Below are positions 11,604 to 31,148 of a DNA stretch of 64,000 nt, piece after piece. A program made the position numbers and the translations under genes. The DNA comes from Sandaracinaceae bacterium. GTDB taxonomy: Bacteria; Myxococcota_A; Polyangia; Polyangiales; Sandaracinaceae. Position 1 is the stretch's first letter. Each line of letters starts with the position of its first letter. Below the pieces are notes generated by a model that was not told the origin of the DNA, searched no databases, and was given only the letters and a program-made list of their open reading frames with translations. The stretch lies in NCBI GenBank assembly GCA_045106715.1, contig JBGCFC010000009.1, positions 1 through 64,000 on the forward strand, in the 5' to 3' direction.

Positions 11604-13461
11604 TCAGAAGCTGGAGATGCGGATCAAGAATACGTTGTTGCGCTCGTCGCCTGCGTACGTCGTCCCGCTGGGCAGCGTGATGCCGTCGCGCCCGAATGTG
11701 CCGACGACCACGAGCGCACCGAAGGGGTCGGCCTGCACGGCAACCACGTCCTCTCGGTCTTCCCCGGAGAGTCCCTGGGCGAACAGGGTGAAGTTCTCGT
11801 CTGCGTCGACCTGCGCGAAGTACGCGTCGAGGCCGCCGACCGAGGGGCCGAGTGTGCCTCGAGGGGGCAACGGGAGCTGACCCCCGAAGCCGCCCGCCTC
11901 GAAGAGCGTGTCGCGTCCGTCGAAGGTCAGGCCCTGGGGGCTCACGAAGTCGGGACCCGCGTGCACTCGTGTGTAGCGGTGGGTCCCGTCGGCCGAGAAC
12001 ACCGCGACAAACGCGTCGTTCGTCCCTTCGGCGGTCCAGGTGGTCTCGGTCCACGGCGGCGCGAAGGTGCCGTTGAACGTCCCCGCGACGGCGAGCGTGC
12101 CGTCCCCGGCGACCGCCGCGGTGGCTGCGAATACGGGCACGGCCAGCGTCGGCACGAGGGCGGCCGACAGCACGACAACATGGCGGCCGTCGACGTGCCG
12201 GCGAGCTCGAGCGGGGTGCCGGTGTTGCCTTGCACGACGATGTGCTGGCCCTTGGCGTTGAGGCCATCGAGCTCGTAGCGACCGTCGGCGTCTTCGAGGC
12301 GCCGCCGTGCGACCTCTGTCGTTCCATCGAACAGCAAGACGTCGAGCCGGTCAGGGGAGCTGCCCTCGCGCGACGAGACGGCCACGACGAGCCCGGCCTC
12401 GATGGCCGCGAGCCCCGCAACGCTCTGGATAGTGGCTCCCTCGACCGTGGGGGAGAGGGTAGCCACCTCGCTGCCGTCGGTCGTCGAGTGAAGCGTGATG
12501 CCGGACGCGGTGGCGACCGCGAGCTGCGGCTCTCCTGGCACGGCGACGAGCGCCACCCCGCGAGCCGGCAAGCGGTGCACGAAGCGGAAGCGGCCATCGG
12601 CTTCGAGCGCCAAGAGATAGGTGCCGAACGTCTCGGTGGACCCGTCCCCGTCGAGGTCGGCCGGCGTGTCCACGATGAGGCCGAGGTAGACCGCGCCGTC
12701 GGCGTCGATCGTCATCCCGAACGCCGGAGCGTCGTCGGCCGCCGGGAACGTCCGCTCCCACGGCACACTTCGGCAGCGGCTGCTCATGCACATCCCGACG
12801 GGGCAGAAGGCGCCCGCCTCGTCGACGTCACCGTCGCAGTCGTCGTCGCGCGTATTGCAGCTCTCGGTCGCGTCGGGGTTCAGGTCGGCCCGCGTGTCGT
12901 CGCAGTCGCGGCCGCTGTTGATCGAGCCGTCGGGGCGGGGGTTGCTGCATCGCGCGTCGATGAAACCATCGTTGTCGTTGTCGGCTTCGCCGTCGCCCGC
13001 CAGCGTCGTCGGGTCGCAGTCCTCGTCGAGCGTGGCCCCTTCGCCTGCGCAGATCTCCGCCCCCTCGCTGTAACGGCGTGGGTCTGTGTCGTCGCAGTCC
13101 GCTCCGCCGCACGAAATCCGGTTGTGTTCCCACCGGCCGAGTCGCCGCCGACCGCCAGGCGCGCGGGGTCCCGATCCAGGTCGGGGTCTTCGCAGTCGTC
13201 TTCCACACAAGCGTCCATCTCCTCGTCGCAGAAGAGCGTCGCGTCGCACGGTGCGGGGGTGGCCATGCCGCCGTCCGAGTCGGCGGGTGCATCGGTGGAG
13301 CAGACTTCGCTTCCGTTGCAGAAGACGCCATCGTCGCACTCGTCGTCATTGGTGCAGCGCACCCGCGTCGAGGCGTCGATGCCGCCGTCTTCCTGCGCGG
13401 TGTCGTCGCACCCGGCGGCGAGCAAGACGGAGAGGCACGGCGGAATGAAGAGGCGCTTCAT
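11604..13461 (-). pseudogene. MopE-repeat lipoprotein disrupted by two single-nt frameshifts
   Basis: The N-terminus MKRLFIPPCLSVLLAAGCDD...CDDGVFCNGSEVC is paralogous to the 8050..11541 N-terminus. The coding signal moves from frame 13461 to frame 13339 at about 13110-13160, and then to frame 12173 at about 12175-12215. The C-terminal part ends ...FLIRISSF. Confidence 0.5.
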
Positions 13462-13485
13462 TCCTCCATCGTATCAGCTGGTACC

Positions 13486-15153: not shown

Positions 15154-18100
15154 GGCTGCACCTTCTCTTTGATCCACCGGGCGACCTGGTCGGGGCTCAG
15201 CGCGGCGATCGGCATGCCCGCGGCGACGAGCCGCTCCGCCGTCGCGACGTCGTAGCGGGCTCCGCCCTCGCCATCGAGGCTGGCCAGTCCGAGGAGTTGC
15301 GCGCCCGACGCCCTGAGCGCGCGAACGGCGCCAAAGAGCACCGAGGGTGGACCGCCGTCCGCGAAGTCCGACACGCACAAGACGAGCGAGCGCGGAGGGC
15401 GGCGGAGCGTCGCGGCCACGTGGGCGAGCGCGTCTCCGATGAGGGTCCCGCCGCCGATCTGCACGGACAGCAGGAGCTCCAGCGGGTCTTGCACGACGTC
15501 GGTCATCTCGATGACTTCGGTGCTGAACGCGAAGAGCCGAAGGTCGAGCCACGGCACACCCGCGAGCACCGCCGCCATCACGGCCGTGTGCACGGTGCTG
15601 GGCTCCATCGAGCCGCTGACGTCCAGCAGGACGGTCACCTCCCACGGCGGCGTGCGATGCGCGAGCGCCTCGAAGGCGATGCGATCGGGGGCCAGCCGCA
15701 CCGTGCCTTCGGCGTCTCGGTAGGCCGTGCGAAGGTTTCGTTCGACCGTGCGCTTGAGGTGCAGCCGCCCGTTGTCCCGTCGGCTCCATCCCGCGGTGCG
15801 GGTGCCGCGGAGAGCGGGCTGAATCTCGCTGGCGAGCGCCCTGGTCAGTTGCTCCACCACGCGCTTGATGAGCGGCCGCAGCCGAGCCAGAGCTCCGTCG
15901 CCGAGGCTGCCTCGCATCTCCAGGATCTGCGCCAGCAGGTCGGCCGACGGGCGCACCGCTTCCGGGTCGAGGTGGGCGAGCAGGTCCGGTCGCTCTCGGG
16001 CGCGATCGACGATGACCTCCTGACGCACCTCGCGGCCGACCAGCCGGTCGAGCTCCTCCGTCCAGCGGCGGGCGTGCACGGCGACGCCTTCTCTTCCCGC
16101 GGTGAGCGGAGGGTTCTCCATCGCGAGCGCCACGGTCTGGCCAAACGTCGACGAGGGTGCGCCGCGCCCGAGCACGAGCTGCACACGGTCCTCCACGGAG
16201 AGCCGCGCTCCGTCCGGCGTGCGCCAGCCACGGGTCCCGGCTTCACGGGTGGCGGTGTCCGGGGCGGGGTCATCTGCATGGGCGTCATTTGCATCGGGGT
16301 CGTCTGCGAAGGGGTCGAAGCGAGGCCCCATCGCGGCGCGCGCAGCGTGGTAGGCGGCGCGATCGAGCTCGACGTGATGCGCGCGTACGAGTGGGTCGAT
16401 CTGGTCGACGCGCGCCATCACGAGGCCCGCTTCTTCGATGTGCTCGAGCAGCCGGTCCCGGTCCGTGCCCCCCAGCGCACGGAACCCGGCGCGCAGGGCG
16501 GGGAGCCGAGCGAGGAAGCGGTCGTCGGAGATCGCGGCGATGCGCCCGACGAGGGCGTCGAAGAGTGCTGGTGACGCGTGCACGAGCCCTGGGGAGCCCA
16601 CGAACAGGCCGGTGAGCGCGAGCGACAGGGCGCGCCGGGTGTCCGGCTCAGCGGCGCCGTCGACGTGCGACGCGAGCCACCGGGCGGCCGGCTCCGGCGG
16701 AGTCAGCTCGGTGAGGAGCTGGGCGGCGAACGCGGCGCCCCGCATCACGGGGCCCGCACGCTCGACGAACTTCGCCAGCAGCGCGGCCAGCCGCGCGCTT
16801 CCGGGATGCGCCAGCACGAGCCGGACGAGGGCGACCGCGTCTTCTGGCTCCTCGCTGCCGATGAGGCCTTCGAGGCGGGTCTCGGCGATTCGGGCGACGC
16901 GCAGCCGTTCCTCCTCCATCGAGTGCACCGCGGCCGCCTGTGTCGCTGGGTCGAAGCCGGGGATCAAACCGGCGGCCAGGCGCGCGAGAAAGGCGCTGTA
17001 GTCGAGCAGCCCGAGCAGCGTGGCGTCGTCGAGGGCGTCGCGGCGAAGCGCGTCGAACCACACGGCCGCAGCGGGGAGGTCGGCCTCGAACGCGGCTTTC
17101 AACGTGGACAGCGCGTCAAGGAAGGACAGTTCTCCGTCTTCTGCCGCGCGGGCGCGCCGTAAGCTCAGCGTCCCGCTGGCCGCCTGCTTCACCGTGACTC
17201 CGGTCGTCCCCGCGACGGCGAGCGTGGCGTCGGTGTTTGGCGTCCACGCGACGCGCCATCGAACCGCGAGCGCTTCGATGCCGCCCTGCGCGACCGACTC
17301 CACGCGGCTGCCGTACGCGATGCCTGAGAGCGCCGCCCGCGTGAGCAGCAAATGCCGCGCGCGATCGCGGCGGTTGCGCCGCACTTCCAGTCGCCGCTCC
17401 TCCGGATCGCCCGGCACGTCCGGCAACCCCAGGCTGGCTAGGTCGGCCCGGAACGCCGCCGTGAGACCGGTGACGGGCGCTCCCTTGGGGAGCTTTCCGC
17501 GCGCATGGCCGATGAGCACGTCCCGGACCGCCAGGTCGAACCCGCGTCCGTCGCCCCCGAGCACGGCGCGGAGCCCCTCACGGAACTCCAGGCGTCCGGG
17601 TTCGGCGAGCCCTCGGAGCGCAGCGAGCCCCCGACTCAAGCGAACGACCTCCACCGCGGCGTCGGTCGATGCCGCGTGGCCGGATCGGCGGAGCGCGCGC
17701 GCCGTCGACACCGCCATGCGGTCGAGGTGTGCATCCACGGTTCCGGTTCCCTCGGCGTACCGCGAGGCGTGCCAGCCGGGGTCGTCGATCCCCGCCGGAT
17801 ACCCGGACCGCGCGTCGAGCAGCCGGTTGGCGTAGGGCACGAGACTGAGCGCGCCCTCGCGCACCGGAGGGACGTCGTCCGCGAGCGTTGCGTCTACCTG
17901 CGGGGCATCCACGAGGGCCGGTGCGTGTGCCGCCCCGACGACCGCCACGCTCCCTTCGCGGCGGCCTTCGAGCTGAGCCCGCATGTGCGCTTCGCGAACG
18001 CGGGTCGCGCGGCTCCCAGGCTGGCCTCCACGGACCGCGTGACCGACGCGCAGCCCCGCGCGGCGAAGGTCTTCCGGGATGCCCTCGGCGCGGGCCTCGA

Positions 18101-18494
18101 CCAGGTCATCCCATCTGTCCAGCAGGGCCACCCCCGCGTCGGACGTCGACGGCTCCGCCTCGTCGCGAGCGACCAGCACGTCGAAGAACACCACGGGGAT
18201 GCCACGCGCTTGGGCCCAGGCGATGGCGACCCGCTCGGGCGAGAACGCCGCGAGCGGCAGCATCGTGACGGAGCTCTCGGTGGCGTGCGCGAGGGCGATC
18301 GGAGGCACGGTGTCGGGGTGCCCGACCCACTCGGCCAAGGGCTGGAAGCAGCGGGGCAGCTCCACGAACAACGTCGACGGCGCCGCCGCCTCGAGCAGGT
18401 CGGGCATGGCGAGCGCCAGCGCGACGGAGTGGTGCCGGACGCCGATCAGAAACGGCGCGCGGGACAGGCAGAGCGCTTCGACCTCTTCGCTCAC
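15150..18494 (-). CDS. Large DUF5682-like protein with C-terminal VWA domain (YehM/YehP-like fusion)
   Basis: The GTG start overlaps the MoxR stop (GTGA). The C-terminus has a von Willebrand A domain with MIDAS motif TVLLDVSGSM...T...D...VLCVSDFADGG. The N-terminal ~750 aa form a helical region of unknown function. The DUF5682 label is from memory of the family, not a search. Confidence 0.75.
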   Translation of the reverse strand: MSEEVEALCLSRAPFLIGVRHHSVALALAMPDLLEAAAPSTLFVELPRCFQPLAEWVGHPDTVPPIALAHATESSVTMLPLAAFSPERVAIAWAQARGIPVVFFDVLVARDEAEPSTSDAGVALLDRWDDLVEARAEGIPEDLRRAGLRVGHAVRGGQPGSRATRVREAHMRAQLEGRREGSVAVVGAAHAPALVDAPQVDATLADDVPPVREGALSLVPYANRLLDARSGYPAGIDDPGWHASRYAEGTGTVDAHLDRMAVSTARALRRSGHAASTDAAVEVVRLSRGLAALRGLAEPGRLEFREGLRAVLGGDGRGFDLAVRDVLIGHARGKLPKGAPVTGLTAAFRADLASLGLPDVPGDPEERRLEVRRNRRDRARHLLLTRAALSGIAYGSRVESVAQGGIEALAVRWRVAWTPNTDATLAVAGTTGVTVKQAASGTLSLRRARAAEDGELSFLDALSTLKAAFEADLPAAAVWFDALRRDALDDATLLGLLDYSAFLARLAAGLIPGFDPATQAAAVHSMEEERLRVARIAETRLEGLIGSEEPEDAVALVRLVLAHPGSARLAALLAKFVERAGPVMRGAAFAAQLLTELTPPEPAARWLASHVDGAAEPDTRRALSLALTGLFVGSPGLVHASPALFDALVGRIAAISDDRFLARLPALRAGFRALGGTDRDRLLEHIEEAGLVMARVDQIDPLVRAHHVELDRAAYHAARAAMGPRFDPFADDPDANDAHADDPAPDTATREAGTRGWRTPDGARLSVEDRVQLVLGRGAPSSTFGQTVALAMENPPLTAGREGVAVHARRWTEELDRLVGREVRQEVIVDRARERPDLLAHLDPEAVRPSADLLAQILEMRGSLGDGALARLRPLIKRVVEQLTRALASEIQPALRGTRTAGWSRRDNGRLHLKRTVERNLRTAYRDAEGTVRLAPDRIAFEALAHRTPPWEVTVLLDVSGSMEPSTVHTAVMAAVLAGVPWLDLRLFAFSTEVIEMTDVVQDPLELLLSVQIGGGTLIGDALAHVAATLRRPPRSLVLCVSDFADGGPPSVLFGAVRALRASGAQLLGLASLDGEGGARYDVATAERLVAAGMPIAALSPDQVARWIKEKVQP

Positions 18495-19636
18495 GAGAGC
18501 AGGCGGCCGCGGTGGTCGTGCAAGGCGCGCCAGAGGGACTCGGGTTGGTCCTCGGCGCGCCGCGAGACGACGCCGTCCCAGTACGCGAGCAACCGGCCGC
18601 GGTCGTCTTCCACGTCTTTGACGACCACGCCGAGCAGCATTCCCACGACCGTCTCCGCGGCCGACGCCTCGAAGAAGCGCGTCGTTCGAAGCACACCCTC
18701 AGCGACCTGCACGGCCTCGGCCGCGCTCATCACCGCGGACGGTTTTTCAACCGCCCAGCCCTCCTCCGTGGTGCCGTACCGGAGGTCGCGAAACAGGGTG
18801 ACCAGTGCCTTCAGCACCGCTTCGTCTGCGGACGCCAGCTTGCCGTCGGAGCCGATGAGGCCGGGCGTGGCCAGCGTGCGTCGGCGCACCAGATCGAGTT
18901 CGTCCTCGAACTCCGCGATGGGCGCGACGATCTCGAAGTTGAATCGCCGCTTGAGCGCCGCGCTCATCTCGGAGACCCCCCGGTCGCGCGTGTTGGCGGT
19001 GGCGATGACGTTGAAGCCGGGGCGCGCGTACACCGTCTCTCCCAGCTCGGCGATGGTCAGCCTGCGTTCGCTGAGCAACGAGACGAGGCCGTCCTGCACC
19101 TCCGACAGGCAGCGGGTGACCTCCTCGATCCGCGCGACCGAACCGTCCTGCATGCAGCGGAGGATCGGCGAAGGAACGAGGGCGTCACGGCTGGGGCCCT
19201 GGCCGATCAGCATCGCGTAGTTCCAGCCGTAGCGAAGCTGCGCCTCGTCGGTGCCCGCGCTGCCCTGCACGGTGCGCTCGCTGCCTCCGCTGATCGCCGC
19301 CGCGAGCAGCTCGGACAGCATCGACTTCGCGGTGCCGGGCTCGCCGACGAGAAGCAGCGATCGGGGACCCGCGAGGGTCACGACGCAGCGCTCCACGAGC
19401 CGCCGGTCGCCGATGAACTTGGCTTCGATCGCACGAGGCGCGGGCGCCCCCTTCTTCTTCTTGCCGACCTTCGCTCCATCCGAGCCACAGATGAAGGTGA
19501 CCACGGCTTCGGGGGTCGTCTTCCACCCTTCCGGGCGCCCTCCGGGCAGTGAGCACAGCAGCGCCAGCTCGTCGGCGTACCGCACCTCGGCAGGCGGGAA
19601 CTGGATGGTTTCGTCGCTCTGGGTGTCGTCGCTCAT
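18491..19636 (-). CDS. MoxR-like AAA+ ATPase (YehL-like)
   Basis: ATG at 19634-19636 (MSDDTQ...). Walker A is LVGEPGTAKS and the sensor region is NVIATANTRD. The length and order match MoxR/AAA_5 proteins. The start overlaps the upstream stop (ATGA). Confidence 0.85.
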   Translation of the reverse strand: MSDDTQSDETIQFPPAEVRYADELALLCSLPGGRPEGWKTTPEAVVTFICGSDGAKVGKKKKGAPAPRAIEAKFIGDRRLVERCVVTLAGPRSLLLVGEPGTAKSMLSELLAAAISGGSERTVQGSAGTDEAQLRYGWNYAMLIGQGPSRDALVPSPILRCMQDGSVARIEEVTRCLSEVQDGLVSLLSERRLTIAELGETVYARPGFNVIATANTRDRGVSEMSAALKRRFNFEIVAPIAEFEDELDLVRRRTLATPGLIGSDGKLASADEAVLKALVTLFRDLRYGTTEEGWAVEKPSAVMSAAEAVQVAEGVLRTTRFFEASAAETVVGMLLGVVVKDVEDDRGRLLAYWDGVVSRRAEDQPESLWRALHDHRGRLLS

Positions 19637-22600
19637 CGTCCGGGCTCCTCGAACTTCGGGCCTTCGCCCGCCTCGATGCGTGCCCAGGCGGCTTCGAAGA
19701 GCGCGTCGGGCGAATACGGGGGCACCGCACCTTCGAACACGCTGTCGAGCGGCGCGTGGCGGTCGGTGTCGTCTCCCCAACCGAACAAGTCGCGTGTCCA
19801 CTTCACGGCGCTGACGCGATGCTTGTCCTTCACCCACAGCCCCGGGATGAACCGGGTGCGTCCGGCGCCTGCACGCTTGCCTTCGATGATGAGCTCTTTG
19901 GCCACGAGCTCGGCGCCGAGCGCGTCGAGGTCCTTGGCTTTCCAGCCGCCGATGGCGATGACGCGCTTGTCCGTCGGCGAAGGCAGGCAGGCCAGCATCA
20001 GATAGTAGGCGGCGGCGTCCGGGCTGACCGAGAGGAGCTTCGCTACATTCTTCACCACCTTGGGCGCGCTCACCCGCGGGTCGCCCGCGCAGCCGTCCGT
20101 GCCCGCGACCTGCTCCGCCAGGGCGATGAGCCGATCGCCCTGTTCGCCCGTGATGAACTCGAGGTTCCGGAGCACACGCTTCGCCGCGACCTGCTCTGCG
20201 ACCAGCGGCTCGCCTTCAAGCAGGGCATCGTAGCGAACGTAGAGGGTCATGCGCCGACGACCGATGAAGACGCGCCGGTCGTCGCCGAGCAGACGCTCGG
20301 GCTTGTCGCCGCGGAAGGTCGACGGCCCACCAGCGGGAAGCGCGGCGGCGACCGTCTCGGCGAGCTCCTCGCGCAGGTGATCGAACTTCTGGTAGAGCGC
20401 TGGGCCCTTCAACCGATCGCGGAGGAGCTTCCAGAACCGAGGCAGCGAGCGAACGAGGAGCGCGTGCCCTTGAGCTTCGTAGAGCGCCTGAACCGGCGGC
20501 ACGCACACGCGCGCCAGGGTGACGGGCACGTAGTCCCATTTGAGGCTGGAGAAGAAACCACGGCTGCCCGTGACGACGCTCGAGCCGGACATCCCCGCGA
20601 CCCTGAGCCCGTCCTTGTCGAAATGGAACTCACGGTCGAGGTGGAGGAACGGCAGGAGCTCGCCCAAGCTGTCCCCGACCACGTCTTCGGCGAGCAGCCG
20701 CGCCGACCAGGAGGGCTCGTCGATGCTCTGCTGCGGACTGTCCGGCGCGCAGCTGGCCAACACCGCCTCGTCACCCGGCGTCAGCGCGGGCACCTTGGGG
20801 TGGTGGCGGAGGTACACCGCGGCGAGCCGCTCGGCCAGGACCTTCGGGTCCCAGAGTTCCTTGTAGTCGCCCGCCATCCACACGGCCGACACCAGCTCCA
20901 TCATGTGCAGCATGTGGCCCGGAGAGAACACAAACGGGTCGTGCTCGAAGCTGGTCTTGGCGGCCTTTCGGCCCTTCTTGACCAGCTTGAACGGGTCGGC
21001 TTCGATCTCGGCGCTCGCCCACATCGTGGCCTCGGCATCCGTGAGCCCCGTGGCTTCCCGCAGGAACGGGAGCGCCTTCTTGATCGGCAGCGGGCCGGCC
21101 TCTCGAACGTGCGCCGCGACCTCGTCGATGCGCTCCGGCGTAAGCCAGCATGGCCCGTAGAGGTTGTCCGTCGGGTCGTCGACGATGACGAACTCCCCCT
21201 TGGGCGCGTACTCGACGAAGGTGAAGTACGCCGCCTCTTTGAACCCGAGCTGCCACGCCAGCACGCGGTTGTCGCCGAGCCTGGAGAAGGTCGGGTTGTA
21301 CGGGCCCTTGCAGGCTTCCTTCGTGTTCTCGCGCCGGAACGCCATCCGGTAGTGCGCAGGGTCCTCAAAGCCGTGCTCGACGAGCTTGTGGGCGAACGCC
21401 GCGAGCTGGGTGCGCGCCTCCTCCGCTTTCTTGGGCGCCAGCGCCATGCGGTAGAGCACGTACGTTCCGTGCCCGAGCGCGGGCTGCCAGCAGTGATGGC
21501 CCCACGCGTACTCCTCGGTGTGTTCGTCGGACAGGGGGCGGTCGAACCGGAGCCGAAGCTCGGCCAGCTCGGACACGAGCGTCGGCCCCGGAATACGGCG
21601 CCGGTAGTCGGCGCCCATCGGGGTTGCCCAGTCACCGAGGGCGTCGGTCAGCGCCGGGTCGCACAGCGTGCGCTTCGGCAAGCTGGGGACGGCAGCCTCC
21701 TCTGCGTTGTCCTCCGGTGCGGCCTCGCCCCCGCTGTAGGCCTGCGCCACCTTCGCGTGGAGGCGCGACACCTGACCCGCGAGATGCGCCGCCCCGATGA
21801 GCGCGGTGCGCAGAGGGTCATACGTGGTGGGCAGCGCCGCATCGACCGCCGAAGCCACCGACGGATGGGGCTCGAACGCGCGGTAGCTCGACGTGCTGAC
21901 CTTGTGTGCCTCATCGCCTCGGGCCGCGGAGAGGATGCCCTCGAGCGCGGCGGCCTCGATCGTGGCCAGCCGTTTTGACGCATCCGGATCGGAGGGCACG
22001 CAATACGGGAGCGCGATCGCCGGCGGGAAGGGGCGCTTCGATACGCTCAGGAAGTCGCTTCGTCCGGTGCGCGAGCGCCCGTTGAGTTCGTGCAACTCCC
22101 TGCGGCGATAGCCGTAGGTGATGGCGCACCAATCGCTTCGTGCGGGCAGGCGGAGGGTGCCCTCCAACCGTTGTGTCGCGGCCCCGAGCTCGCCAGACGC
22201 GTCCCAGTGGATGAGGCCGGATTCTTGATACCCGAACGCATACACGTCGTTCTCGACGCGGACAGGAGCGCCTTCGCGTGGCTCGAGTTCGAGTCGCCAG
22301 TGCCAGATGACCTCGCTCGGCGCCTCGGTTGGGGCACTCTCGCCGCTCTTCGGATCGTAGCGGAGCCAGCCGCTGTCCGAGAGCAGATGAGGGGCACCGT
22401 CATGCACGATGGGACGCCCCTCCAGATGCGACAAGCGCACCGTGGTGGACCCGGCCTTGATCAGCGCGCCCGCGAGCACGTCGCCGCTGTCGAGCCGAAC
22501 CGCGGCACGCGCGCTCGTTCCGTAGATCGCTTTCGGGGTAAGCGGATGAACAGCTCCGGGTGCGCTCGCCCAGTAGTAGCCGGAGACGTCCCAGCGGCCG

Positions 22601-24339
22601 CCCACGAAAACCAGAAGGTCCTCGCCCACGTAGAGCGCGATGTGCGCGTACTCGTGCGATTTCGGCACGGTGTGTTCGAGCACTTTCGAGCCGTCCCGGT
22701 CGAGCACGACGACGTCGTGGCCATGCGCCATCGTGAGGTAGGGCGGCGTGAGGAACAGGTTCGGGACATCTCGGTCCGACGTGGCCATCGCTTCGAACTC
22801 GGGAAAGCAGACTTCCTCGACACATCCGAACCGCAGCTGGCTGGCGAACGACTCCGCCACGTCGATGCGGGAGAGGGCCTCGGCGAGCGCGGGGATGCGA
22901 GAGGCGTACGCTCCCGGGAACGCGTCCAGGAGGTTGAGCGCACTCTGGGTGTCGACCAAGCCGCCGGTACCGACGGGCGCCAGGCGTTCCGAGACGGCCT
23001 CGCTGAGCATCTCGAGGAAGCGGGGCAGCTCCGGCTCGGGAAGGCTCTGATACGCGCGCGGCCGCAGCCTGCCGGCGTGACCCACGAACCTGGCGCGAGC
23101 GATCTCGTCGCCGGCGATGAGCGGGATGTCCTCGCTCGGCCAGCGCTGCCCTCGGTAGTAGTTGTCGAGGTTCGTGAAGCGCACGAACGCATGGGGGATC
23201 CCCAGGCGGAGCGACGTCTCCACCGTCGTGAACGACAGCGGCTTGTCCTCGGCCCCGAGCGGATGTCCGTCATCGATCAGCCGCGGCGCCGCCTTCTCGA
23301 TCAGCCCGAAGGCGAGCTCCGTGCGGCAGGCGCTCAGCATTCCGGTCATCCAGGCGGCCGCGGTTCGGCTGCTCTGTCCGGGCGCGTTGGCATCGACGAT
23401 CGCGTCGAGCAGACCCCATGCGTCCAGCTGCTCCAGCCAGGGCTCGGCCTTGATCTCCATCGGCCAGAGATCGAGCAGGGCGCTCGCGACCTCGGAGTCG
23501 GCGCTGGCCGCGGCCCCGAGGGCCTTCTTGGCCTTGGTGAAGAAGCCCTTGGCGGCGCGCCTGAGCGCGCTCGCGGACGCGATCTGAGAGATGAACTCGA
23601 GCTCCGCTTCGGCCGGCTTGATCTTGGCGGCCTTGGCCAGCTTGCCGATGTCCTTGAGCTGCGTCGGGGACGGGGGCAGGCCACCCATGGTGCGGCGGAC
23701 ACACACGCGGAGATACGCGTCCAAGCCGTCTTTCCCGCGGGCCGTGAGCTCGTCGGCGTAGTTGGTGAGGCTCTTGACGGCGAGCGCTCCGGCGAGCGCG
23801 AAGTCGACGAAGCTCTGCTCACGCAGGTCCTCGTCGGCCTCCAGCCCGTACTGACGTTCGGCCGCCCGCGCCTTCTCGAAGTACTGCTGCGCGTAGCTGA
23901 GGTTGTCGTGTTCGATGAACGCGCGCGCGGCCTCCTCGTAATACGACGGCAAGAAGTGCGGCACCGAGCCGGCGAGCTGCGCGCCGATCGCGTCGAGCCC
24001 CTCCTTGGCGGCGCCCGGCTTGGACTTCATGCGCCGAATCGACTTCTTCATCTCCTCGAGCACGTCGAGCGCGAAGCGCGCGTTCTTCTTGTCGTTCACG
24101 AGCGCCCACGCCGGGAAGCCGAGCGGCTGCCGTGAGACGCGCCCGACATCGTCCCGTCCGGCAGCGGCGAAGCCGAGCAGCTCCATCTCGAGGTCGACGG
24201 CCTCGTCGATCGTGCCCGGGCCGAGCCGCACCATCGGCGTGGACAACGCGGGGTGCGAGTACGCGCGCGCGACGAGCACGTCGAGGTCTTTGGGCTTCGC
24301 GGAGAGCGGCAGTACGCTGCCTGCGGCGAGCGCACTCAT
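19633..24339 (-). CDS. Giant (1568 aa) protein of unknown function, paralog A of a tandem pair
   Basis: ATG at 24337-24339 (MSALAAGSVLPLSAKPKDLDVL...) with GAGGAG 9 nt upstream. The stop overlaps the MoxR start, and the start overlaps the WGR gene stop. The ORF is continuous and GC3-rich. No recognisable catalytic motif was seen by eye. Confidence 0.7.
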   Translation of the reverse strand: MSALAAGSVLPLSAKPKDLDVLVARAYSHPALSTPMVRLGPGTIDEAVDLEMELLGFAAAGRDDVGRVSRQPLGFPAWALVNDKKNARFALDVLEEMKKSIRRMKSKPGAAKEGLDAIGAQLAGSVPHFLPSYYEEAARAFIEHDNLSYAQQYFEKARAAERQYGLEADEDLREQSFVDFALAGALAVKSLTNYADELTARGKDGLDAYLRVCVRRTMGGLPPSPTQLKDIGKLAKAAKIKPAEAELEFISQIASASALRRAAKGFFTKAKKALGAAASADSEVASALLDLWPMEIKAEPWLEQLDAWGLLDAIVDANAPGQSSRTAAAWMTGMLSACRTELAFGLIEKAAPRLIDDGHPLGAEDKPLSFTTVETSLRLGIPHAFVRFTNLDNYYRGQRWPSEDIPLIAGDEIARARFVGHAGRLRPRAYQSLPEPELPRFLEMLSEAVSERLAPVGTGGLVDTQSALNLLDAFPGAYASRIPALAEALSRIDVAESFASQLRFGCVEEVCFPEFEAMATSDRDVPNLFLTPPYLTMAHGHDVVVLDRDGSKVLEHTVPKSHEYAHIALYVGEDLLVFVGGRWDVSGYYWASAPGAVHPLTPKAIYGTSARAAVRLDSGDVLAGALIKAGSTTVRLSHLEGRPIVHDGAPHLLSDSGWLRYDPKSGESAPTEAPSEVIWHWRLELEPREGAPVRVENDVYAFGYQESGLIHWDASGELGAATQRLEGTLRLPARSDWCAITYGYRRRELHELNGRSRTGRSDFLSVSKRPFPPAIALPYCVPSDPDASKRLATIEAAALEGILSAARGDEAHKVSTSSYRAFEPHPSVASAVDAALPTTYDPLRTALIGAAHLAGQVSRLHAKVAQAYSGGEAAPEDNAEEAAVPSLPKRTLCDPALTDALGDWATPMGADYRRRIPGPTLVSELAELRLRFDRPLSDEHTEEYAWGHHCWQPALGHGTYVLYRMALAPKKAEEARTQLAAFAHKLVEHGFEDPAHYRMAFRRENTKEACKGPYNPTFSRLGDNRVLAWQLGFKEAAYFTFVEYAPKGEFVIVDDPTDNLYGPCWLTPERIDEVAAHVREAGPLPIKKALPFLREATGLTDAEATMWASAEIEADPFKLVKKGRKAAKTSFEHDPFVFSPGHMLHMMELVSAVWMAGDYKELWDPKVLAERLAAVYLRHHPKVPALTPGDEAVLASCAPDSPQQSIDEPSWSARLLAEDVVGDSLGELLPFLHLDREFHFDKDGLRVAGMSGSSVVTGSRGFFSSLKWDYVPVTLARVCVPPVQALYEAQGHALLVRSLPRFWKLLRDRLKGPALYQKFDHLREELAETVAAALPAGGPSTFRGDKPERLLGDDRRVFIGRRRMTLYVRYDALLEGEPLVAEQVAAKRVLRNLEFITGEQGDRLIALAEQVAGTDGCAGDPRVSAPKVVKNVAKLLSVSPDAAAYYLMLACLPSPTDKRVIAIGGWKAKDLDALGAELVAKELIIEGKRAGAGRTRFIPGLWVKDKHRVSAVKWTRDLFGWGDDTDRHAPLDSVFEGAVPPYSPDALFEAAWARIEAGEGPKFEEPGR

Positions 24340-25535
24340 GACGCGTTCTCCTCTTCTTCGATCTTGCGAGCGGCGTAGATGAGCGACGCCATGCGCACGC
24401 CCTCCGAGTAGGTCACCGGCGGGACGTCGTTCAGGCGCAGGGTCTTGCCGTTGAGTTCGAAGCTCAGGTCTTCGGTGACCGCCTCGCCCCACGGGTCTTC
24501 GGCGCCCACCCAGAAGTTCGCCTGATGCAGCGCGCCGTCCTCGTGCACGCTCGTGGTCGCGTAGCCGCCGCTCATGCGGCACCCGATCGCACGGACGCGC
24601 GCGGTTGCGTGGCGCGCCTCCTCGAACTGGCCGTTCTCGTAGTCGGTGACCGACGTCACGTCGTCGGCGATCCGGTCGGGCTTCGCGAAGGTCTCGCGCA
24701 TCAGCTGGCCCAGGCCCTGCGCGATGCCGAGCTCCATCGCGAGCTCCCGGAAGTCGGCCAGCTCCGCGAGCAGGATCGGATGCGGAATGCGCACGGTCTC
24801 CGCGCCGAGCCAAACGCTCTCCCCGTCGAGGTTGACGAGCCCGAGGCCGCGCTCCGGGTCGACGTCCTTCAAGAAGCCGATGCGTTCGTCATCGTCGAGC
24901 GAGGCAGGGGCGATCACGGTGTTCTCGAGCAGCGCCCGCCACGTGGCGTCGGGCCAGACCTTTTCGAGCAGCGCCGAGGGCACCGGGAGGGAGCGCAGCA
25001 TCCAGCGCTCGACCGTCTCGAGGCACTCCTCGGCGTGCGCCTTCATCATCTTGGCGACGTCGAGCATCATCTCGCCCTGAGGCGAGGTCTTCATCTTCTT
25101 GGAGACCGACTTCAGCTCTTTGCCCTTCGCGTTCCGGGCGACGAGCTTGCCGTCCTTGATCGCGAGGGAACCTCCGGCGTCGCACGGGACCCACCCGTCG
25201 GTCTCGGGCGGCGGCTCCGGAGCCTTCTTCTTGGTCGGTGCCTTCTTCTTGGCGGTCGCCTTCTTCGCGGGTGCCTTCTCTGCCGGAGTCGCTGCCGTTT
25301 CGGTCGCTGTGTCGCTGGCATCCTCGGACGTCTGCTCGACGTAGCCCTTCTTGGTCTTCTGCCCGATGAGCTTGTTGGCCTCCTTGAGCGCCGCGGCTTC
25401 GTCCCCGAAGGACTTCTCCTTCGTCTGGCCGTTCGTGCCGATGCGCCCGTAGCGAATCGTCAGGTTCGACCCACTCTGTTCGACTTCCCAGAACTTCGAC
25501 GATTTGGCGTCTTCGTACGTCAGGTGCTTGCGCAT
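24336..25535 (-). CDS. WGR-domain + DUF4132 (MolR-like) protein
   Basis: ATG at 25533-25535 with a GGAAGGA SD. The N-terminal WGR signature is KFWEVEQSGSNLTIRYGRIGTNGQTKEKSF...KKGY. A Lys/Ala/Pro-rich linker follows. The C-terminal ~220 aa match my recollection of DUF4132, the domain at the C-terminus of E. coli MolR/YehI. Confidence 0.8.
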   Translation of the reverse strand: MRKHLTYEDAKSSKFWEVEQSGSNLTIRYGRIGTNGQTKEKSFGDEAAALKEANKLIGQKTKKGYVEQTSEDASDTATETAATPAEKAPAKKATAKKKAPTKKKAPEPPPETDGWVPCDAGGSLAIKDGKLVARNAKGKELKSVSKKMKTSPQGEMMLDVAKMMKAHAEECLETVERWMLRSLPVPSALLEKVWPDATWRALLENTVIAPASLDDDERIGFLKDVDPERGLGLVNLDGESVWLGAETVRIPHPILLAELADFRELAMELGIAQGLGQLMRETFAKPDRIADDVTSVTDYENGQFEEARHATARVRAIGCRMSGGYATTSVHEDGALHQANFWVGAEDPWGEAVTEDLSFELNGKTLRLNDVPPVTYSEGVRMASLIYAARKIEEEENAS

Positions 25536-25607
25536 GCGACTTCGTCCTTCCGTGGCGGTCTGCACCGCCAGATCTCTTCATTCATCGACGGGTGCCACCC
25601 GCCCGGC

Positions 25608-28600
25608 TCAGCTCCCGGGCTCGTCGAGGCCAGGGCCGTCGCCCGCTTCGATGCGCGCCCACGCCGCCTCGTACAGCGCGTCCGGGGACATCGGCGGGAA
25701 GGCACCCCGAAAGACCGCGTCGTCCGGGGCGTGACGATCGGTTTCGGTGCCCCACCCGAACAGCTCCCGCGTCCACCTCACCGCGCTCACGCGGTGCTTG
25801 TCTTTGACCCAGAGCCCCGGAACGAACCGCGTCCGGCCGGCGCCGGCGCGCTTGCCTTCCACGATGTGCGCTCCCGCGCCGAGTTCGGCTCCCAACGCGT
25901 CGAGCGTGTTGGCGTCCCAGCCCGCGAGTGCCCCCACGTGTTTGTCCGTCGGCGACGGCAAGCACGCGAGCATCAAGAAGTAGGCGGCCGCATCGGAGCT
26001 GACCGAAAGCCGTTCCGCGACGCCCTCGACGACCTTCGGAGCGCTCACCCTGGGGTCTCCCGCGCAGCGCTCGGAGCCGGCGACCTGCTCGGCCAACGCG
26101 ATCATCCGCGCGAGGGTCGGGCCCATCAGGAAGGTCAGGTCCTGCCGCAGCCGCCGCACATCTTGGTGGGCGTCCATGGGTGTGTCGCCCTCCACGATGG
26201 CGTCGTACCGCAGCCACAGCCGCGCCTGTCCGGTCTTCAGGTACACGCACCGGTCGTCGCCCAAGAGCGTCTTGGGCTTCTTGCCTTGGAACGACGACGG
26301 TCCGCCCTTCGGCAGCGCGGCTCGCACCGTGTCCAACACGTCCCGGTGAAGCTCGATCTCCTGGTAGAGGCCAGGTCCCTGAAGGCGCTCTTGCAGCAAG
26401 CGGAACACGCGCGGGAGCGAGCGCACCAGGAGCGCATGCCCGTCGCACGCGTACAGACCGCGCACGAACGGGACCACGATGCGCTCGAGCGACTCGGGGA
26501 TGTAGTCCCACTTCAGATTCGAGTGAAACCCGCGGCCCGTGGTTCGTCCGCCGGTCACGCCGCGGACGTGGTAGCCGTCCTTGTCGAAGTGGTGCTCGCG
26601 GTCCTGATGAAGGAAGGGCAGAAGGGCCTCGACCCCGTCGGTGTCGTTAGCGAGCAGGCGCGCCGCCCAGGACGGCTCGTCGATGGTGAGGTCGGCTTCG
26701 TCACGGATGTGTTTGGCCAAGACGGCTTCGTCGCCCGCCGTGAGGGTCGGCAGCTGCGGTCGGTGCCGAAGGAAGACGCCCGCGAGCCGTTCGGCGAGGA
26801 CCTTCGGATCCCAGAGCTCCTTGTAGTCCCCGGAGGTGAAGACCGAAGAGCCGAGGTCGAGGGTGTGAAGCATGTGTCCCGGAGACGAGACGAAGGGGTC
26901 ATGTTCGAAGGACGTGCGGCCGACCCAGCGCAGGCTCGCCTTCTTGACCAGCTTGAAGGGGTCGGAATGGAACTCGGCGAGCGCCCACATGGTGGCCTCG
27001 CTCTCGGTCATGCCCGTGGCCTCACACAGCAGCGGCACGGCCTTCCGGATCGGGAGCGGACCGGCCGCCTCGACATGGGCGACGACCTCCTCGATGCGGT
27101 CCGCCGTGAGCCAGCATGGGCCGTAGAGGTTGTCGTCTGGGTCGGCGATGACTTCGAAGACGCCCTTCGGGGCGTACTCGAGGAACGTGAACATCGCGTC
27201 TTCTTCGTAGCCGAGTTGCCACGCGAAGACGCGGTTGTCTCCACGCGCCGCGAGCGTTGGGTGATAGGGGCTCTTGCAGATGGAGGCCGTGTTCTCCTTC
27301 CGGAATGCGAGCCGGTAGTGGTCCCGGTCTTCGAACCCGTGCTGAAGAAGCAGCCGCGCGAACGAAGCGAGCTGCTCCCGCGCAGCCGAGGCCTTCTTCG
27401 GCGCCAGCGCCATTCGGTAGAGCACGTACGCGCCGTGCCCGAGTCCGGGCTGCCAGCAGTGGTGGCCCCAGATGTACTCGTCGTGCCCTTTGGGGACCGG
27501 GCGATCGAATCGCAGCCGAAGCTCCCCTAGCTCGGAGGCGAGTGTCGGGCCCTTGGTTCGGTCGCGGTAGCCGGCATCCAGCGGGTAGGCGAAGTCGCCC
27601 AACGCGTCCGTCAGCGTAGGGTTGCCGACGTCGCGCTTGGGGAGGGCGTCAGCGCTCTTCTTCTTCGAGGCGGTCTTCCTCGGCAAGGTGTCTCCCGAAG
27701 AAGAAACTGCGCTCGTGGACTCGATGAGATCCCCGACATCCTCGCGCACTTCCTCGTAGGCGGCGGCGACGTGCCCGGCGTAGTGCGCGATCCCGGCGAG
27801 CGCGGCGCGGAGCGGCGCGTATGAGGTCGTCACCAGTGCGTCGAGCGCCTCGAGCAGGCCTCGGTGCGGCTTGAACTTCGTCCAGCTGGAGGCGGTGACC
27901 TCGAGCGCCTTGGGCTTCTGCGCCACCTCGAGCAGGCTGGCCAGCTCGTCGGCCTGGATCGTCGAGAGCTGTGCTGACGCCGCTGCGTCGGAGGGCCGGT
28001 ACATGGGAAGGGCCATCTTGCCGGCGAAGCGTCGCTCCGCAGCCCCGAGAAGGTCATCCCCGTCGGAGTATTGGACGCCTCGCACGTCACGAAGCTCCTC
28101 CGCCTCGTAGGACTCCTCGAAGAGGCAGGGCGCCTCGCGATGGGGGAGCTGGATGAGCGCGTCGGACGTACCGCTCTGGTCCACCATCGGTCCCGGGACC
28201 GCGCCCTCTCCGTCCTCTGCGCCGCCTTCGCTCATCGCGTAGGCGAACACCCCGTTGCCCGCGCGCACGGGCGCCCCTTCGCGGGGATCGAGCTCGACGT
28301 GGAACGCCCAGCGCTTCGTCTGCTCGGCTTCGTCTTCCACAAACGCGCCCGTCGAGGCGTCGTACCGGACCCACCCCTCGTCGCGGGGCACCAGCACGGT
28401 GCCGTCGTGTACCTGAGGACGCCCGGCGAGGTCCTCGCTGCGAAGCGTCGTCGATCCCGCGCGGATGAGGCCGGCGGCGATGACGTCCCCGCCGGGGAGC
28501 CGAACCGCGTTGTCCGAGTTCCAGACCCACCCGCTGATGGGGTGCACGTCTTTGGGCGCGCTGGCCCAGTAGTAGCCGCGGTAGTTGTAGCCGTACTCGT

Positions 28601-30344
28601 CGCTCAGGCAGACCAGCAGGTCCTCGCCCACGTACATCGCGCGGCACGCGGTCCCGCCGCGCACCTTGTGTTCGAGCACGAGCGCACCATCGCGGTCGAA
28701 CACGCGGACCTGCTTCTTCGTCCACAGCGTCGTGAACGGCCACGTGACGCAGAACCCCGGCTCCTGGTCTTTGACCGCCATGGCCTCGAACTCGGGAAAG
28801 CAGATCTCTTCGATGCACCCGAACCGGAGCTGCGCGGCGAACGCTTCGGGCACATCGATGCGGCGGAAGGCGTCGCGGAGGGCGGGGAGCGTCTTCCAGT
28901 AGCGCGCCGGGAAACCGCCGAGAAGCTCGAGCGCTTCTTTGGTGTGATAGAGCCCGCTCTGCCCGATCGAGGCGAGCGTCTTGGCCATCGCCTCGTCGAG
29001 CATGGCGTTGAACGCAGGCAGGTCGACGTCGGGGAGGTCCGCGTAGTCGGAGCCCGAAAGGCGCCCTGCGTCCGCGAGAAAGCGCGCGCGTGCGTTGGGG
29101 TCTTCGGCGATGCGCGGGAGGTCGACGGAAGGCCATCGCGGGCTGTCTGCGTACCGGTAGCTCTCGAGGTTCTCGAAGCTCTCGAAGACGTGCGGGATGC
29201 CCAGTCGGAGGCAGGTTTCGACGGTGTCGAGGGACAGGCGCTCTTCCTTGCCCCCGAGCGGGATGGCCTCGGCGATGAGTCGGTCCGCCGCGCGCTCGAG
29301 GACGCCGAGGGCGCGCTCGCCCCAACAGTGCTCCAGCATGGACGTCATCCACGCCGCGGTCGTTCGCTGGCTCTGCCCGGGCGCATCGGCGTCGGCCAGC
29401 GCGTCGAGAAGCCCCCAGTCGTCCAGCAGCGCCAGCCAGCTCTGGCTGTCGACGCCGCCCGGCCACAGATCCAAGAACGCAGACGCGACGGCGATGTCTT
29501 GCTTCGCCGCGGCGGCCAACGACTTCTTCGCCTTCGTGTAGAAGCCCTTTGAGGCGCGCCGGAGCGCGCTCGCGGACGCGATCTGCGTGATGAAGTCGCG
29601 CTCGGCGTCGGCCGGGGTGAGCCCGGCGGCCTTGGCCAGCTTGGCGATGTCCTTGAGCTGGGTGGCGGACGGGGGGAGGCCGCCGAGGGTGCGGCGGACG
29701 GAAACACGAAGGTAGGCGTCCAGGCCGTCCTTGCCGCGCGCCGACAGCTCGTCCGCGTAGTTCGTGAGGCTCTTGACCGCGAGGGCGCCGGCGAGCGCGA
29801 AGTCGACGAAGCTCTTCTCGCGCAGCTCCTCGTCAACCTCGAGTCCGTACTGGCGCTCGGCGGCCCGCGCCCTCTCGAAGTACTGCTGCGCGTAGCTGAT
29901 GTTGTCGTGCGCGATGAACGCGCGCGCCGCCTCTTCGTAGAAGGAGGGCAAGAAGTGCGGGACCGAGCCGGCGAGCTTCGCGCCGATGGCGTCGAGCCCT
30001 TCCTTGGCCGTGCCCGGCTTGGACTTCATGCGCCGAATCGACGTCTTCATCTCTTCGAGCACGTCGAGCGCGAACCGCGCGTTCTTCTTGTCGTGCACGA
30101 GCGCCCAGGCCGGGAAGCCGAGCGGTTGGCGAGGCACGCGGCCCACCTCATCGCGTGCGCTCGGCGTGAAGCCGAGCAGGTCCATCTCGAGGTCGACCGC
30201 CTCGTCGATCGCGCCGGGGCCGAGCCGCACCATCGGGGACGGCAGGGCGGGGTGCGCGTAGGCACGCGCGACCAGAACGTCGAGCTCGTCGGCGGGGGAC
30301 GAGAGCGGCAGGATGCTGCCGGCAACGTGGGCTGGGCGGCTCAC
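25608..30344 (-). CDS. Giant (1578 aa) protein, paralog B of the tandem pair
   Basis: A GTG start at 30342-30344 (MSRPAHVAGSILPLSSPADELDVL...) aligns with the paralog A N-terminus. A GTG at 30401 is an alternative. The N-terminal 300 aa are about 85 % identical to paralog A. Conserved blocks recur along the whole length (HGFEDPAHYRMAFRRENT / HGFEDRDHYRLAFRKENT; GDPRVSAPKVV... in both). Confidence 0.65.
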   Translation of the reverse strand: MSRPAHVAGSILPLSSPADELDVLVARAYAHPALPSPMVRLGPGAIDEAVDLEMDLLGFTPSARDEVGRVPRQPLGFPAWALVHDKKNARFALDVLEEMKTSIRRMKSKPGTAKEGLDAIGAKLAGSVPHFLPSFYEEAARAFIAHDNISYAQQYFERARAAERQYGLEVDEELREKSFVDFALAGALAVKSLTNYADELSARGKDGLDAYLRVSVRRTLGGLPPSATQLKDIAKLAKAAGLTPADAERDFITQIASASALRRASKGFYTKAKKSLAAAAKQDIAVASAFLDLWPGGVDSQSWLALLDDWGLLDALADADAPGQSQRTTAAWMTSMLEHCWGERALGVLERAADRLIAEAIPLGGKEERLSLDTVETCLRLGIPHVFESFENLESYRYADSPRWPSVDLPRIAEDPNARARFLADAGRLSGSDYADLPDVDLPAFNAMLDEAMAKTLASIGQSGLYHTKEALELLGGFPARYWKTLPALRDAFRRIDVPEAFAAQLRFGCIEEICFPEFEAMAVKDQEPGFCVTWPFTTLWTKKQVRVFDRDGALVLEHKVRGGTACRAMYVGEDLLVCLSDEYGYNYRGYYWASAPKDVHPISGWVWNSDNAVRLPGGDVIAAGLIRAGSTTLRSEDLAGRPQVHDGTVLVPRDEGWVRYDASTGAFVEDEAEQTKRWAFHVELDPREGAPVRAGNGVFAYAMSEGGAEDGEGAVPGPMVDQSGTSDALIQLPHREAPCLFEESYEAEELRDVRGVQYSDGDDLLGAAERRFAGKMALPMYRPSDAAASAQLSTIQADELASLLEVAQKPKALEVTASSWTKFKPHRGLLEALDALVTTSYAPLRAALAGIAHYAGHVAAAYEEVREDVGDLIESTSAVSSSGDTLPRKTASKKKSADALPKRDVGNPTLTDALGDFAYPLDAGYRDRTKGPTLASELGELRLRFDRPVPKGHDEYIWGHHCWQPGLGHGAYVLYRMALAPKKASAAREQLASFARLLLQHGFEDRDHYRLAFRKENTASICKSPYHPTLAARGDNRVFAWQLGYEEDAMFTFLEYAPKGVFEVIADPDDNLYGPCWLTADRIEEVVAHVEAAGPLPIRKAVPLLCEATGMTESEATMWALAEFHSDPFKLVKKASLRWVGRTSFEHDPFVSSPGHMLHTLDLGSSVFTSGDYKELWDPKVLAERLAGVFLRHRPQLPTLTAGDEAVLAKHIRDEADLTIDEPSWAARLLANDTDGVEALLPFLHQDREHHFDKDGYHVRGVTGGRTTGRGFHSNLKWDYIPESLERIVVPFVRGLYACDGHALLVRSLPRVFRLLQERLQGPGLYQEIELHRDVLDTVRAALPKGGPSSFQGKKPKTLLGDDRCVYLKTGQARLWLRYDAIVEGDTPMDAHQDVRRLRQDLTFLMGPTLARMIALAEQVAGSERCAGDPRVSAPKVVEGVAERLSVSSDAAAYFLMLACLPSPTDKHVGALAGWDANTLDALGAELGAGAHIVEGKRAGAGRTRFVPGLWVKDKHRVSAVRWTRELFGWGTETDRHAPDDAVFRGAFPPMSPDALYEAAWARIEAGDGPGLDEPGS

Positions 30345-30584: not shown

Positions 30585-31148
30585 ATGGATCTGACGCTCG
30601 ACGACTGGCTCGAACAACACCGCGGGGGTCGTCGCGTGGGAATCGAGGGGTACTCGACCGTTTTGCGTCTTGACGCACCCATCACGCGCGACTCGCTGTC
30701 CGAGGTCGAGGAGGCGACCGGGTATCGCTTCCCTGAGGCGTACGTCCGCTGCGTGACCGAGATCGGACTCCCTTACCTCGAGGTGTCGCGGGATCGGGGC
30801 GAGCATTCGTTCGGCCCGTTGCCGGAGTCCCGCATGCTTCTGCCGTCGGAGCAGCTGGAGATCCTCAGCGCGTTCAAGACCTGGGTCGTGAACTGCACGT
30901 CCGACTTCGACGACGATCCCGTCGCCGCTGCCGAGGAGCAGGCGCGCTGGGATGCCTTCATCCCCTTCCAGTTCCTGGGCGACGGGTCGGCAACGGACGT
31001 CTACTGCTTTGTTCGTGGTGACGAGCGAGATGGGCTTCCACGCGTCGTGGCGGCCTATCACGACGACGATGCCTGCGACGAAGAGGAGGAGGACGAGCGC
31101 ATCTACGGCTTCTTCGCGCACCTCCAGGATGTCCTGGATCACACCTGA
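30585..31148 (+). CDS. SMI1/KNR4 (SUKH-1) family protein
   Basis: The 187-aa protein begins MDLTLDDWLEQ.... The segment ...EVEEATGYRFPEAYVRCVTEIGLPY...FIPFQFLGDGSATDVYCF... has the SUKH-1 layout (immunity-protein superfamily). The C-terminus is an acidic tail. Confidence 0.5.
   Translation: MDLTLDDWLEQHRGGRRVGIEGYSTVLRLDAPITRDSLSEVEEATGYRFPEAYVRCVTEIGLPYLEVSRDRGEHSFGPLPESRMLLPSEQLEILSAFKTWVVNCTSDFDDDPVAAAEEQARWDAFIPFQFLGDGSATDVYCFVRGDERDGLPRVVAAYHDDDACDEEEEDERIYGFFAHLQDVLDHT

Follow-up and report, generated by a model that had tools for sequence, protein, structure and literature searches.

Gene content of the locus

We analysed a window of 64,000 nucleotides (nt; G+C ~70%) on contig JBGCFC010000009.1 of a Sandaracinaceae bacterium (GCA_045106715.1), the whole stretch to which all positions below refer. 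It carries a six-gene operon in which two large, colinear and full-length paralogs, here termed A and B, flank a gene for a protein with WGR and DUF4132 domains, and in which a MoxR AAA+ ATPase, a protein with a VWA domain and a fifth cassette protein are encoded further downstream. This arrangement of the paralogs had been described in an earlier reading of the same DNA (the original prediction), and it is borne out by the open reading frames (ORFs) and by the Pfam matches of the gene between them. Protein regions are given in the numbering of A. In order of transcription, followed by the divergent neighbour, the genes are:

25608..30344, minus strand: paralog B, 1578 amino acids (aa), GTG start at 30344 (ORF and translation)
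24336..25535, minus strand: WGR + DUF4132 protein, 399 aa (Pfam WGR 2.1e-20, DUF4132 3.8e-21)
19633..24339, minus strand: paralog A, 1568 aa, ATG at 24339, with an alternative in-frame GTG one codon 5' at 24342
18491..19636, minus strand: YehL-type MoxR AAA+ ATPase (Pfam AAA_5, PF07728, 8e-38)
15150..18494, minus strand: fusion of DUF5682 (YehM-like) and VWA_CoxE (YehP-like), 1114 aa (PF18934 6.8e-110, PF05762 6.1e-45)
13486..15153, minus strand: fifth cassette gene, 555 aa, at the yehQ position (synteny and a CxCLLxPxCxH motif)
30585..31148, plus strand: SUKH-1/SMI1-KNR4 gene, 187 aa (PF09346 1.8e-5, 25.8 bits against a cut-off of 25.4)

Paralog B is the first gene of the operon, and between its stop codon and the WGR/DUF4132 gene lies a 72-nt spacer that includes a ribosome-binding site (GGAAGGA). 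The four remaining junctions (DUF4132/A, A/ATPase, ATPase/fusion and fusion/fifth gene) are 4-nt start/stop overlaps of the ATGA or GTGA kind, with ATGA joining the WGR/DUF4132 stop to the A start and the A stop to the ATPase start. Directly 5' of the ribosome-binding site, the spacer (25536-25607, minus strand) also contains a short hairpin, GGCGGT-GCAG-ACCGCC, which is unlikely to be a terminator because it lacks a T-run. Terminator-like matches all fell on the antisense strand, and a sigma-70 promoter scan returned none, as expected at 70% GC. A Myxococcus-type LexA box was matched less often than expected by chance, and nowhere upstream of the operon. The SUKH-1 gene is divergent from paralog B, and together with the 240-nt gap that separates it from the B start it marks the upstream limit of the operon. 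SUKH proteins frequently confer immunity in polymorphic toxin systems.

The proteins encoded by A and B are identical to the public entries AB8I08_02995 (P0001, 100%) and AB8I08_03005 (P0002), respectively; the annotated lengths agree, and both genes lie on one 355-kb contig of a Sandaracinaceae metagenome-assembled genome (MAG). When A was searched against the whole window with tblastn, only A and B were matched. The surroundings of related genes were surveyed in the best 80 of more than 505 genomic loci. A fixed order of DUF4132 protein, large protein, AAA_5 ATPase, DUF5682 + VWA_CoxE protein and ~560-aa protein was found in ~79 genomic and three metagenomic loci, which span Myxococcota, Actinomycetota, Planctomycetota, Chloroflexota and Acidobacteriota. 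In most relatives the DUF4132 protein is ~298 aa long and usually without WGR, and its gene precedes the large gene in nearly all of the 79 loci. Paralog A sits in the canonical slot of this cassette, between the DUF4132 gene and the AAA+ gene. As for the number of copies in relatives, which the original prediction had asked about, one large gene is the norm: the only surveyed locus with two is that of the Planctomycetaceae MAG RYN_440 (L060), where they stand in tandem (8405-13423 and 13480-18495), both 3' of the DUF4132 gene. A copy 5' of the DUF4132 gene was seen in the window only, among the loci surveyed. The ancestral cassette had a single large gene, and the Sandaracinaceae lineage gained a second copy at the operon head; B is by position the added copy, because it is the one upstream of the DUF4132 gene. 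A further arrangement occurs in the Kofleriaceae MAG_AAO_AS.67, in which one contig bears a complete cassette (L008) and a second one an orphan pair of DUF4132 and large-protein genes (L072, 8572-14716) that lacks the YehL/M/P/SWIM core and is followed by unrelated convergent histidine-kinase genes, although the co-occurrence of the two loci in this MAG may be a binning error.

The large proteins gave no match to Pfam (E up to 10), NCBIfam or PADLOC models when A and B were scanned, and precomputed Pfam domains were absent from the 120 homologs listed. These homologs are hypothetical proteins of ~1,550-1,700 aa from Myxococcota, Micromonosporaceae, Streptomyces, Planctomycetota, Chloroflexota, Acidobacteriota and others, and the nearest relative outside the contig is ~40% identical. 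When 1.84 billion representative proteins were searched exhaustively by phmmer for relatives of residues 1-359, 540 matches were obtained. Because there are only this many, nearly all of the same length and with the module at the N terminus, the family is compact, with a single architecture, ~540 clusters at 50% identity and members in at least five phyla. The exception is a 2031-aa protein of the representative library (P0280), which as annotated is an in-frame fusion of DUF4132 (38-222, 3.5e-21) with the large protein (N-terminal module at 333-677) and which appears to provide a Rosetta-stone link between these two cassette members. The fifth cassette protein is likewise without a Pfam match, and a hidden Markov model of this protein found no match when compared with YehQ; its CxCLLxPxCxH motif, which we take to be a SWIM signature, does not vary among 51 orthologs and can be aligned with the CSCGANGMCRH of YehQ.

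Divergence between the two paralogs

Over 1555 aligned residues of a global alignment, the A and B proteins are 61.5% identical, and the genes are 67% identical at the DNA level. Identity varies strongly along the protein: 79% for residues 1-330, 51% for 331-718, 38% for 719-918, 69% for 919-1220, 54% for 1221-1424 and 77% for 1425-1569. The mosaic of divergence proposed originally is thus real, and it consists of conserved ends and a variable middle; it does not take the form of the greater divergence towards the C terminus that had been supposed, since the minimum lies at 719-918 and the C-terminal module is nearly as similar as the N-terminal one. An identity of ~85% had been given for the N-terminal ~300 residues, and this holds for residues 61-270 (86%), while residues 1-300 reach 80%. 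The DNA of 24090-24330 and 30100-30340 had been called near-identical; it is 79.5% identical over 224 nt, and identical runs in the gene pair reach at most 31 nt. The tracts on which the following comparisons turn are:

23380..24342, minus strand: 5' tract of A, codons 1-321, a candidate old gene-conversion tract with low silent divergence, which also encodes the family's most conserved module
29379..30344, minus strand: matching 5' tract of B, codons 1-322
21589..23352, minus strand: A residues 331-918, the most diverged from B (the second half of the helical repeats, a beta-propeller-like domain at ~528-770 and a helical domain)
27552-29351, minus strand: B counterpart of A 331-918
20683..21588, minus strand: A residues 919-1220, 69% identical to B and poorly conserved family-wide
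26643-27551, minus strand: B counterpart of A 919-1220
19636..20070, minus strand: A residues 1425-1569, a conserved C-terminal module with a winged-helix-like fold
25611-26045, minus strand: B counterpart of A 1425-1569

The silent sites show that the duplication is old. The Nei-Gojobori synonymous divergence (dS) between A and B is 0.88 overall. At 590 four-fold degenerate sites, taken from codons that specify the same amino acid in both genes, full saturation is predicted from base composition to give 59% differences, and beyond codon 270 each region shows 49-60%; outside the N terminus the four-fold difference is 0.55 against the 0.59 of saturation. With silent sites saturated over ~80% of the gene, the duplication is old rather than recent. 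The description of the duplication as recent must be given up on these values. It was accompanied by an explanation in which a recent tandem duplication was followed by positive selection on the C-terminal half while an N-terminal interaction module was kept. It would account for the N terminus being the most similar part (80-86%) and for a 60-codon window in which the ratio of nonsynonymous to synonymous divergence (dN/dS) is 1.43, but even the N terminus has a corrected silent divergence of ~0.5, the final 145 residues fall within the half supposed to be diversified, and the N-terminal conservation is the same as that among orthologs. Together with the short identical runs noted above, this makes such a history extremely improbable.

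Both copies are intact and under purifying selection. The proportion of nonsynonymous differences (pN) lies below that of synonymous differences (pS) in residues 1-330 (0.12 vs 0.39), 331-930 (0.38 vs 0.53) and 931 to the end (0.22 vs 0.57). Since, in addition, both ORFs retain all 47 of the 47 invariant columns of a 40-sequence family alignment, A and B have been kept by selection. Sliding windows along the pair revealed none with pN significantly above pS; dN/dS exceeds 1 in a single 60-codon window (columns 541-600), where the excess lacks significance (p = 0.19), and the proposed diversifying selection is not supported by these windows. These data also bear on whether one copy is redundant and decaying, or is an artefact of assembly or binning; an assembly artefact had been considered in the original prediction itself. 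The pair does come from a single MAG contig. Against this, both ~4.7-kb ORFs are intact, with a G+C content at third codon positions (GC3) of the coding type and with pN well below pS, they lie inside one long contig with tight operon junctions, and a DNA identity of 67% could not arise from a collapsed or duplicated assembly; decay or artefact is hardly credible here.

How much of the mosaic is particular to the paralogs was judged against 192 ortholog pairs with 55-69% overall identity. Their median identities in the same six regions are 0.79, 0.57, 0.48, 0.49, 0.48 and 0.77, and the family as a whole shows strong conservation of residues 1-330 and 1425-1569 around a variable middle. The A/B identities at both ends are in this comparison typical of orthologs, and most of the mosaic reflects the constraint profile of the family; A/B identity per 50-residue window follows family conservation with a Spearman coefficient of 0.51. 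Relative to overall identity, however, residues 331-718 (0.51) and 719-918 (0.38) rank no higher than the 0.5th percentile among the ortholog pairs, and residues 919-1220 (0.69) lie above all 192 of them (maximum 0.64). Because silent sites are saturated in 919-1220 (four-fold differences 0.515), the likeness there reflects shared purifying selection and not conversion. The independent tandem pair of the planctomycete, which is 59% identical, has the same overall identity profile and deviates in the same way, at the 2.6th percentile for 331-718 and the 95th for 919-1220. We read this as a probable paralog-specific pattern, in which 331-918 is more diverged and 919-1220 less diverged than in comparable orthologs. 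Of the earlier idea that one half of the protein had been diversified, what survives is the extra divergence of 331-918, whereas the conserved N terminus, supposed to have been specially kept, equals that of orthologs.

The beginning of the gene differs from the rest in its silent sites. A change-point test placed a break after codon 321, across which four-fold differences rise from 0.34 to 0.55 (permutation p = 5e-4); once base composition is corrected for, silent divergence is ~0.5 substitutions per site in codons 1-321 and ~1.5 elsewhere, and so is about threefold lower. The null consisted of 366 pairs of orthologs that reside in other genomes, are 52-72% identical as proteins and could not have undergone conversion with each other. 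The ratio of silent divergence in the 5' tract to that in the rest is 0.605 for A/B, below all 366 pairs (median 0.99, minimum 0.63), and with the pre-chosen region 61-270 the A/B ratio is the fifth lowest among the pairs listed. This suggests that the first ~1 kb underwent a single ectopic gene conversion long ago, and not a recent homogenisation. The opposing view is that constraint only, including constraint at the codon or mRNA level, combined with sampling noise to produce all of these patterns, with no specialisation of the paralogs and no conversion. The correlation with family conservation and the ortholog-typical ends are what it would predict, and some ortholog pairs have silent ratios of 0.55-0.65 for residues 61-270. 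It sits badly with the position of A/B beyond the whole ortholog set when the boundary is drawn at 1-321, with the departure of 331-718 and 919-1220 from the ortholog range in opposite directions, and with the matching deviations of the L060 pair, and we hold it to be rather unlikely.

The duplication could also be apparent, B being a xenolog from a related, unsampled myxobacterial lineage that was inserted at the head of the operon. The non-canonical place of B, 5' of the DUF4132 gene, would be explained in this way; a search 5' of B found neither flanking homology nor a DUF4132 remnant, and GC3 is slightly higher in B (0.88) than in A (0.83). On the other hand, A and B are each other's best match by a wide margin (62%; in no region does the next relative exceed 43%) and lie equally far from outgroups in all regions (0.43 each to P0003), and because of this a duplication within the lineage is favoured. 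The shared 5' tract of low divergence implies long co-residence, no family match was found in phage collections, and in plasmid collections there were only partial matches, on megaplasmids of Streptomyces, Embleya and Nonomuraea. We regard a foreign origin of B as quite unlikely.

Predicted structure and a proposed model for the duplicated protein

A profile search of the PDB with the family alignment returned only chance matches to T4 lysozyme (E >= 0.1). AlphaFold2 was run with 48-sequence alignments for residues 1-760 and 731-1569, giving a mean predicted local distance difference test score of 85 and 84, respectively. In these models a small alpha/beta domain (1-75) is followed by helical repeats (78-520), a beta-rich domain (~528-770) and, in the C-terminal half, helical and alpha/beta domains. 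Foldseek matched them to proteins that combine a solenoid with a propeller, such as VPS15, and to the isolated propellers of BBS1 and WDR91 (probability 0.97-0.99), with low TM scores; TPR/solenoid and winged helix-turn-helix folds were also matched, and no catalytic fold was found in the fold searches. On these models, the large protein would be a non-enzymatic scaffold or sensor.

We consider it fairly probable, with a probability of about 0.6, that A and B are ancient, in-lineage paralogs of an uncharacterised component of a YehL-subfamily MoxR AAA+/VWA operon, and that they provide two input subunits for one ATPase core. We tentatively propose that this might work as follows. The large protein would be built from an alpha/beta N-domain, TPR-like repeats, a propeller-like domain, several domains of helical or alpha/beta type and, finally, a winged helix. 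Docking of the DUF4132 protein would fall to the N-terminal module, a contact that is suggested because the two are found as a natural fusion and are translationally coupled. The MoxR hexamer could then load or remodel the large protein by way of the MIDAS site that the VWA protein carries, in the manner of other MoxR/VWA pairs; the large protein is put in this place because it is the only candidate partner in the cassette. YehL is one of seven MoxR subfamilies, and MoxR proteins act as chaperone-like partners of VWA proteins, maturing or remodelling a dedicated complex (PMC3893208). The N-terminal module, residues 919-1220 and the C-terminal winged helix, which A and B share, may be the faces turned towards the single-copy partners, and the diverged helical-repeat and propeller region (331-918) may form an input or specificity surface. 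In this way a single ATPase core would serve two sensor subunits, which the cell uses as alternatives or joins in a heteromer.

Several points weigh against this reading. Searches of the literature on DUF5682, yehLMPQ and molR/yehI found no functional study of the system, either biochemical or genetic. The fold matches are generic (Z <=10.8, TM <=0.2) and reveal no catalytic domain or ligand. That A and B bind the same partners is suggested by conservation patterns only. With dS saturated, pairwise dN/dS neither detects nor excludes past positive selection, and the ortholog pairs that served as a null are not independent, being mostly from Micromonosporaceae. The breakpoint at codon 321 was chosen from the A/B data before the comparison with orthologs, which favours its outcome somewhat, and the duplication stands in a single MAG contig, with no closer relative by which it could be dated or the changed copy polarised.

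The duplication as such is ordinary paralogy, and the more useful result is the identity of the duplicated gene. It comes from a widespread family, undescribed so far, that is a constant member of one variant form of the YehL-type MoxR/VWA operon. Second copies in independent lineages diverge in the same region, which makes 331-918 the likely specificity part; the N-terminal module, 919-1220 and the C-terminal winged helix are the likely partner-binding parts and present themselves as targets for mutagenesis and interaction studies.

The WGR, winged-helix and SWIM-type elements of the operon suggest nucleic acid as the substrate or signal. In Deinococcus, WGR and DUF4132 genes belong to the DdrO damage regulon and are induced by DNA damage, and molR has been reported in the LexA regulon of E. 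coli (PMC8533742); a DNA-linked role would fit because of these two observations. The cassette might then be an undescribed surveillance system, driven by nucleoside triphosphates, for DNA damage or invading nucleic acid, with the large protein as its sensor, although we think this doubtful. If it were true, lineages would widen recognition by adding sensor paralogs to one ATPase core, and would have done so by more than one route: in tandem here, in tandem in the planctomycete, and as an unlinked module of DUF4132 and large protein in the Kofleriaceae MAG. Such a process would resemble the expansion of receptor repertoires in STAND/NLR immunity.

The window contains other genes of note away from the operon. 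An 881-aa protein (5347-7989, plus strand) with MVP_shoulder (6e-16), Vault_3 and Band_7 matches is major-vault-protein-like. A 1166-aa protein (8050-11550, minus strand) carries MopE-type Cu-binding motifs and RCC1 repeats, as secreted proteins of myxobacteria typically do. Two further large paralogs also stand in tandem (36186-40280 and 40196-43963, both plus strand); both have DUF3857, and the first has a transglutaminase core as well.

Relation to known MoxR systems and the yeh locus

Ternary systems of MoxR, vWA and beta-propeller proteins, marked by bpMoxR (PF20030), have been predicted by the Aravind group to be conflict systems. The operon resembles them in combining a MoxR ATPase, a vWA protein and a protein that contains a putative propeller. 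The differences are that its ATPase matches bpMoxR with 23 bits against a cut-off of 27, over profile positions 8-57 of 205 (the P-loop region), and that its propeller is one part of a far larger protein with many domains. Pfam, NCBIfam and PADLOC scans of the cassette proteins revealed no effector domain. The one match to PADLOC-DB v2 is a weak one of the WGR domain to WGR_XIII (1.6e-5); neither paralog gave any, nor did the ATPase, the VWA fusion and the fifth protein.

The operon also resembles the MoxR/VWA pairs RavA-ViaA, CbbQ-CbbO, NorQ-NorD and CoxD-CoxE. As in these pairs, the MoxR AAA+ ATPase of the window adjoins a CoxE-type VWA (MIDAS) protein. Unlike them, it has no enzyme client nearby; in its place stand a putatively non-enzymatic 1,600-aa protein and the DUF4132, WGR and SWIM-type elements, which suggest nucleic acid and not a metalloenzyme as the target.

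A further comparison is with the yeh locus of E. coli, which in K-12 has the order yehF (WGR), yehH (a molR pseudogene), yehI (DUF4132, 1210 aa), yehK, yehL, yehM, yehP and yehQ. The two loci differ in several respects. The large proteins of the window lack DUF4132 (Pfam, E up to 10), which resides instead on a separate small protein (399 aa here, ~298 aa and without WGR in most relatives); there is no YehK, the YehM and YehP parts are fused, and the fifth protein has no detectable homology to YehQ beyond its motif. In hhalign, the 40-sequence family profile gave a probability of 0.15 against YehI and 0.10 against a 12-sequence alignment of YehI and MolR, which amounts to no signal, and no solved structure of YehI or MolR was among the matches of the PDB search. 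By these comparisons A and B do not appear to be sequence homologs of MolR/YehI. The parallel with the tandem molR/yehI genes drawn in the original prediction accordingly fails as homology of A and B, and stands in the kinship of the loci and as an analogy of position: in both, large accessory genes occur upstream of yehL as a tandem paralog pair, the enterobacterial MolR-like protein being ~55% identical to YehI. The kinship itself extends through most of the remaining genes. The ATPase and E. coli YehL are 47% identical from end to end (E 2e-99), BLASTP relates the fusion protein to both YehM (2e-17) and YehP (4e-45), the WGR domain is 52% identical to that of YehF/MolR and belongs to a WGR/DUF4132 protein that likewise lies upstream, and a protein with a Cys/His motif occupies the position of yehQ. 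Because the ATPase, the fusion and the WGR domain match YehL, YehM/YehP and YehF, the ATPase core is orthologous to yehLMP, and the operon, with its two diverged large proteins, is a relative of the E. coli yeh locus.

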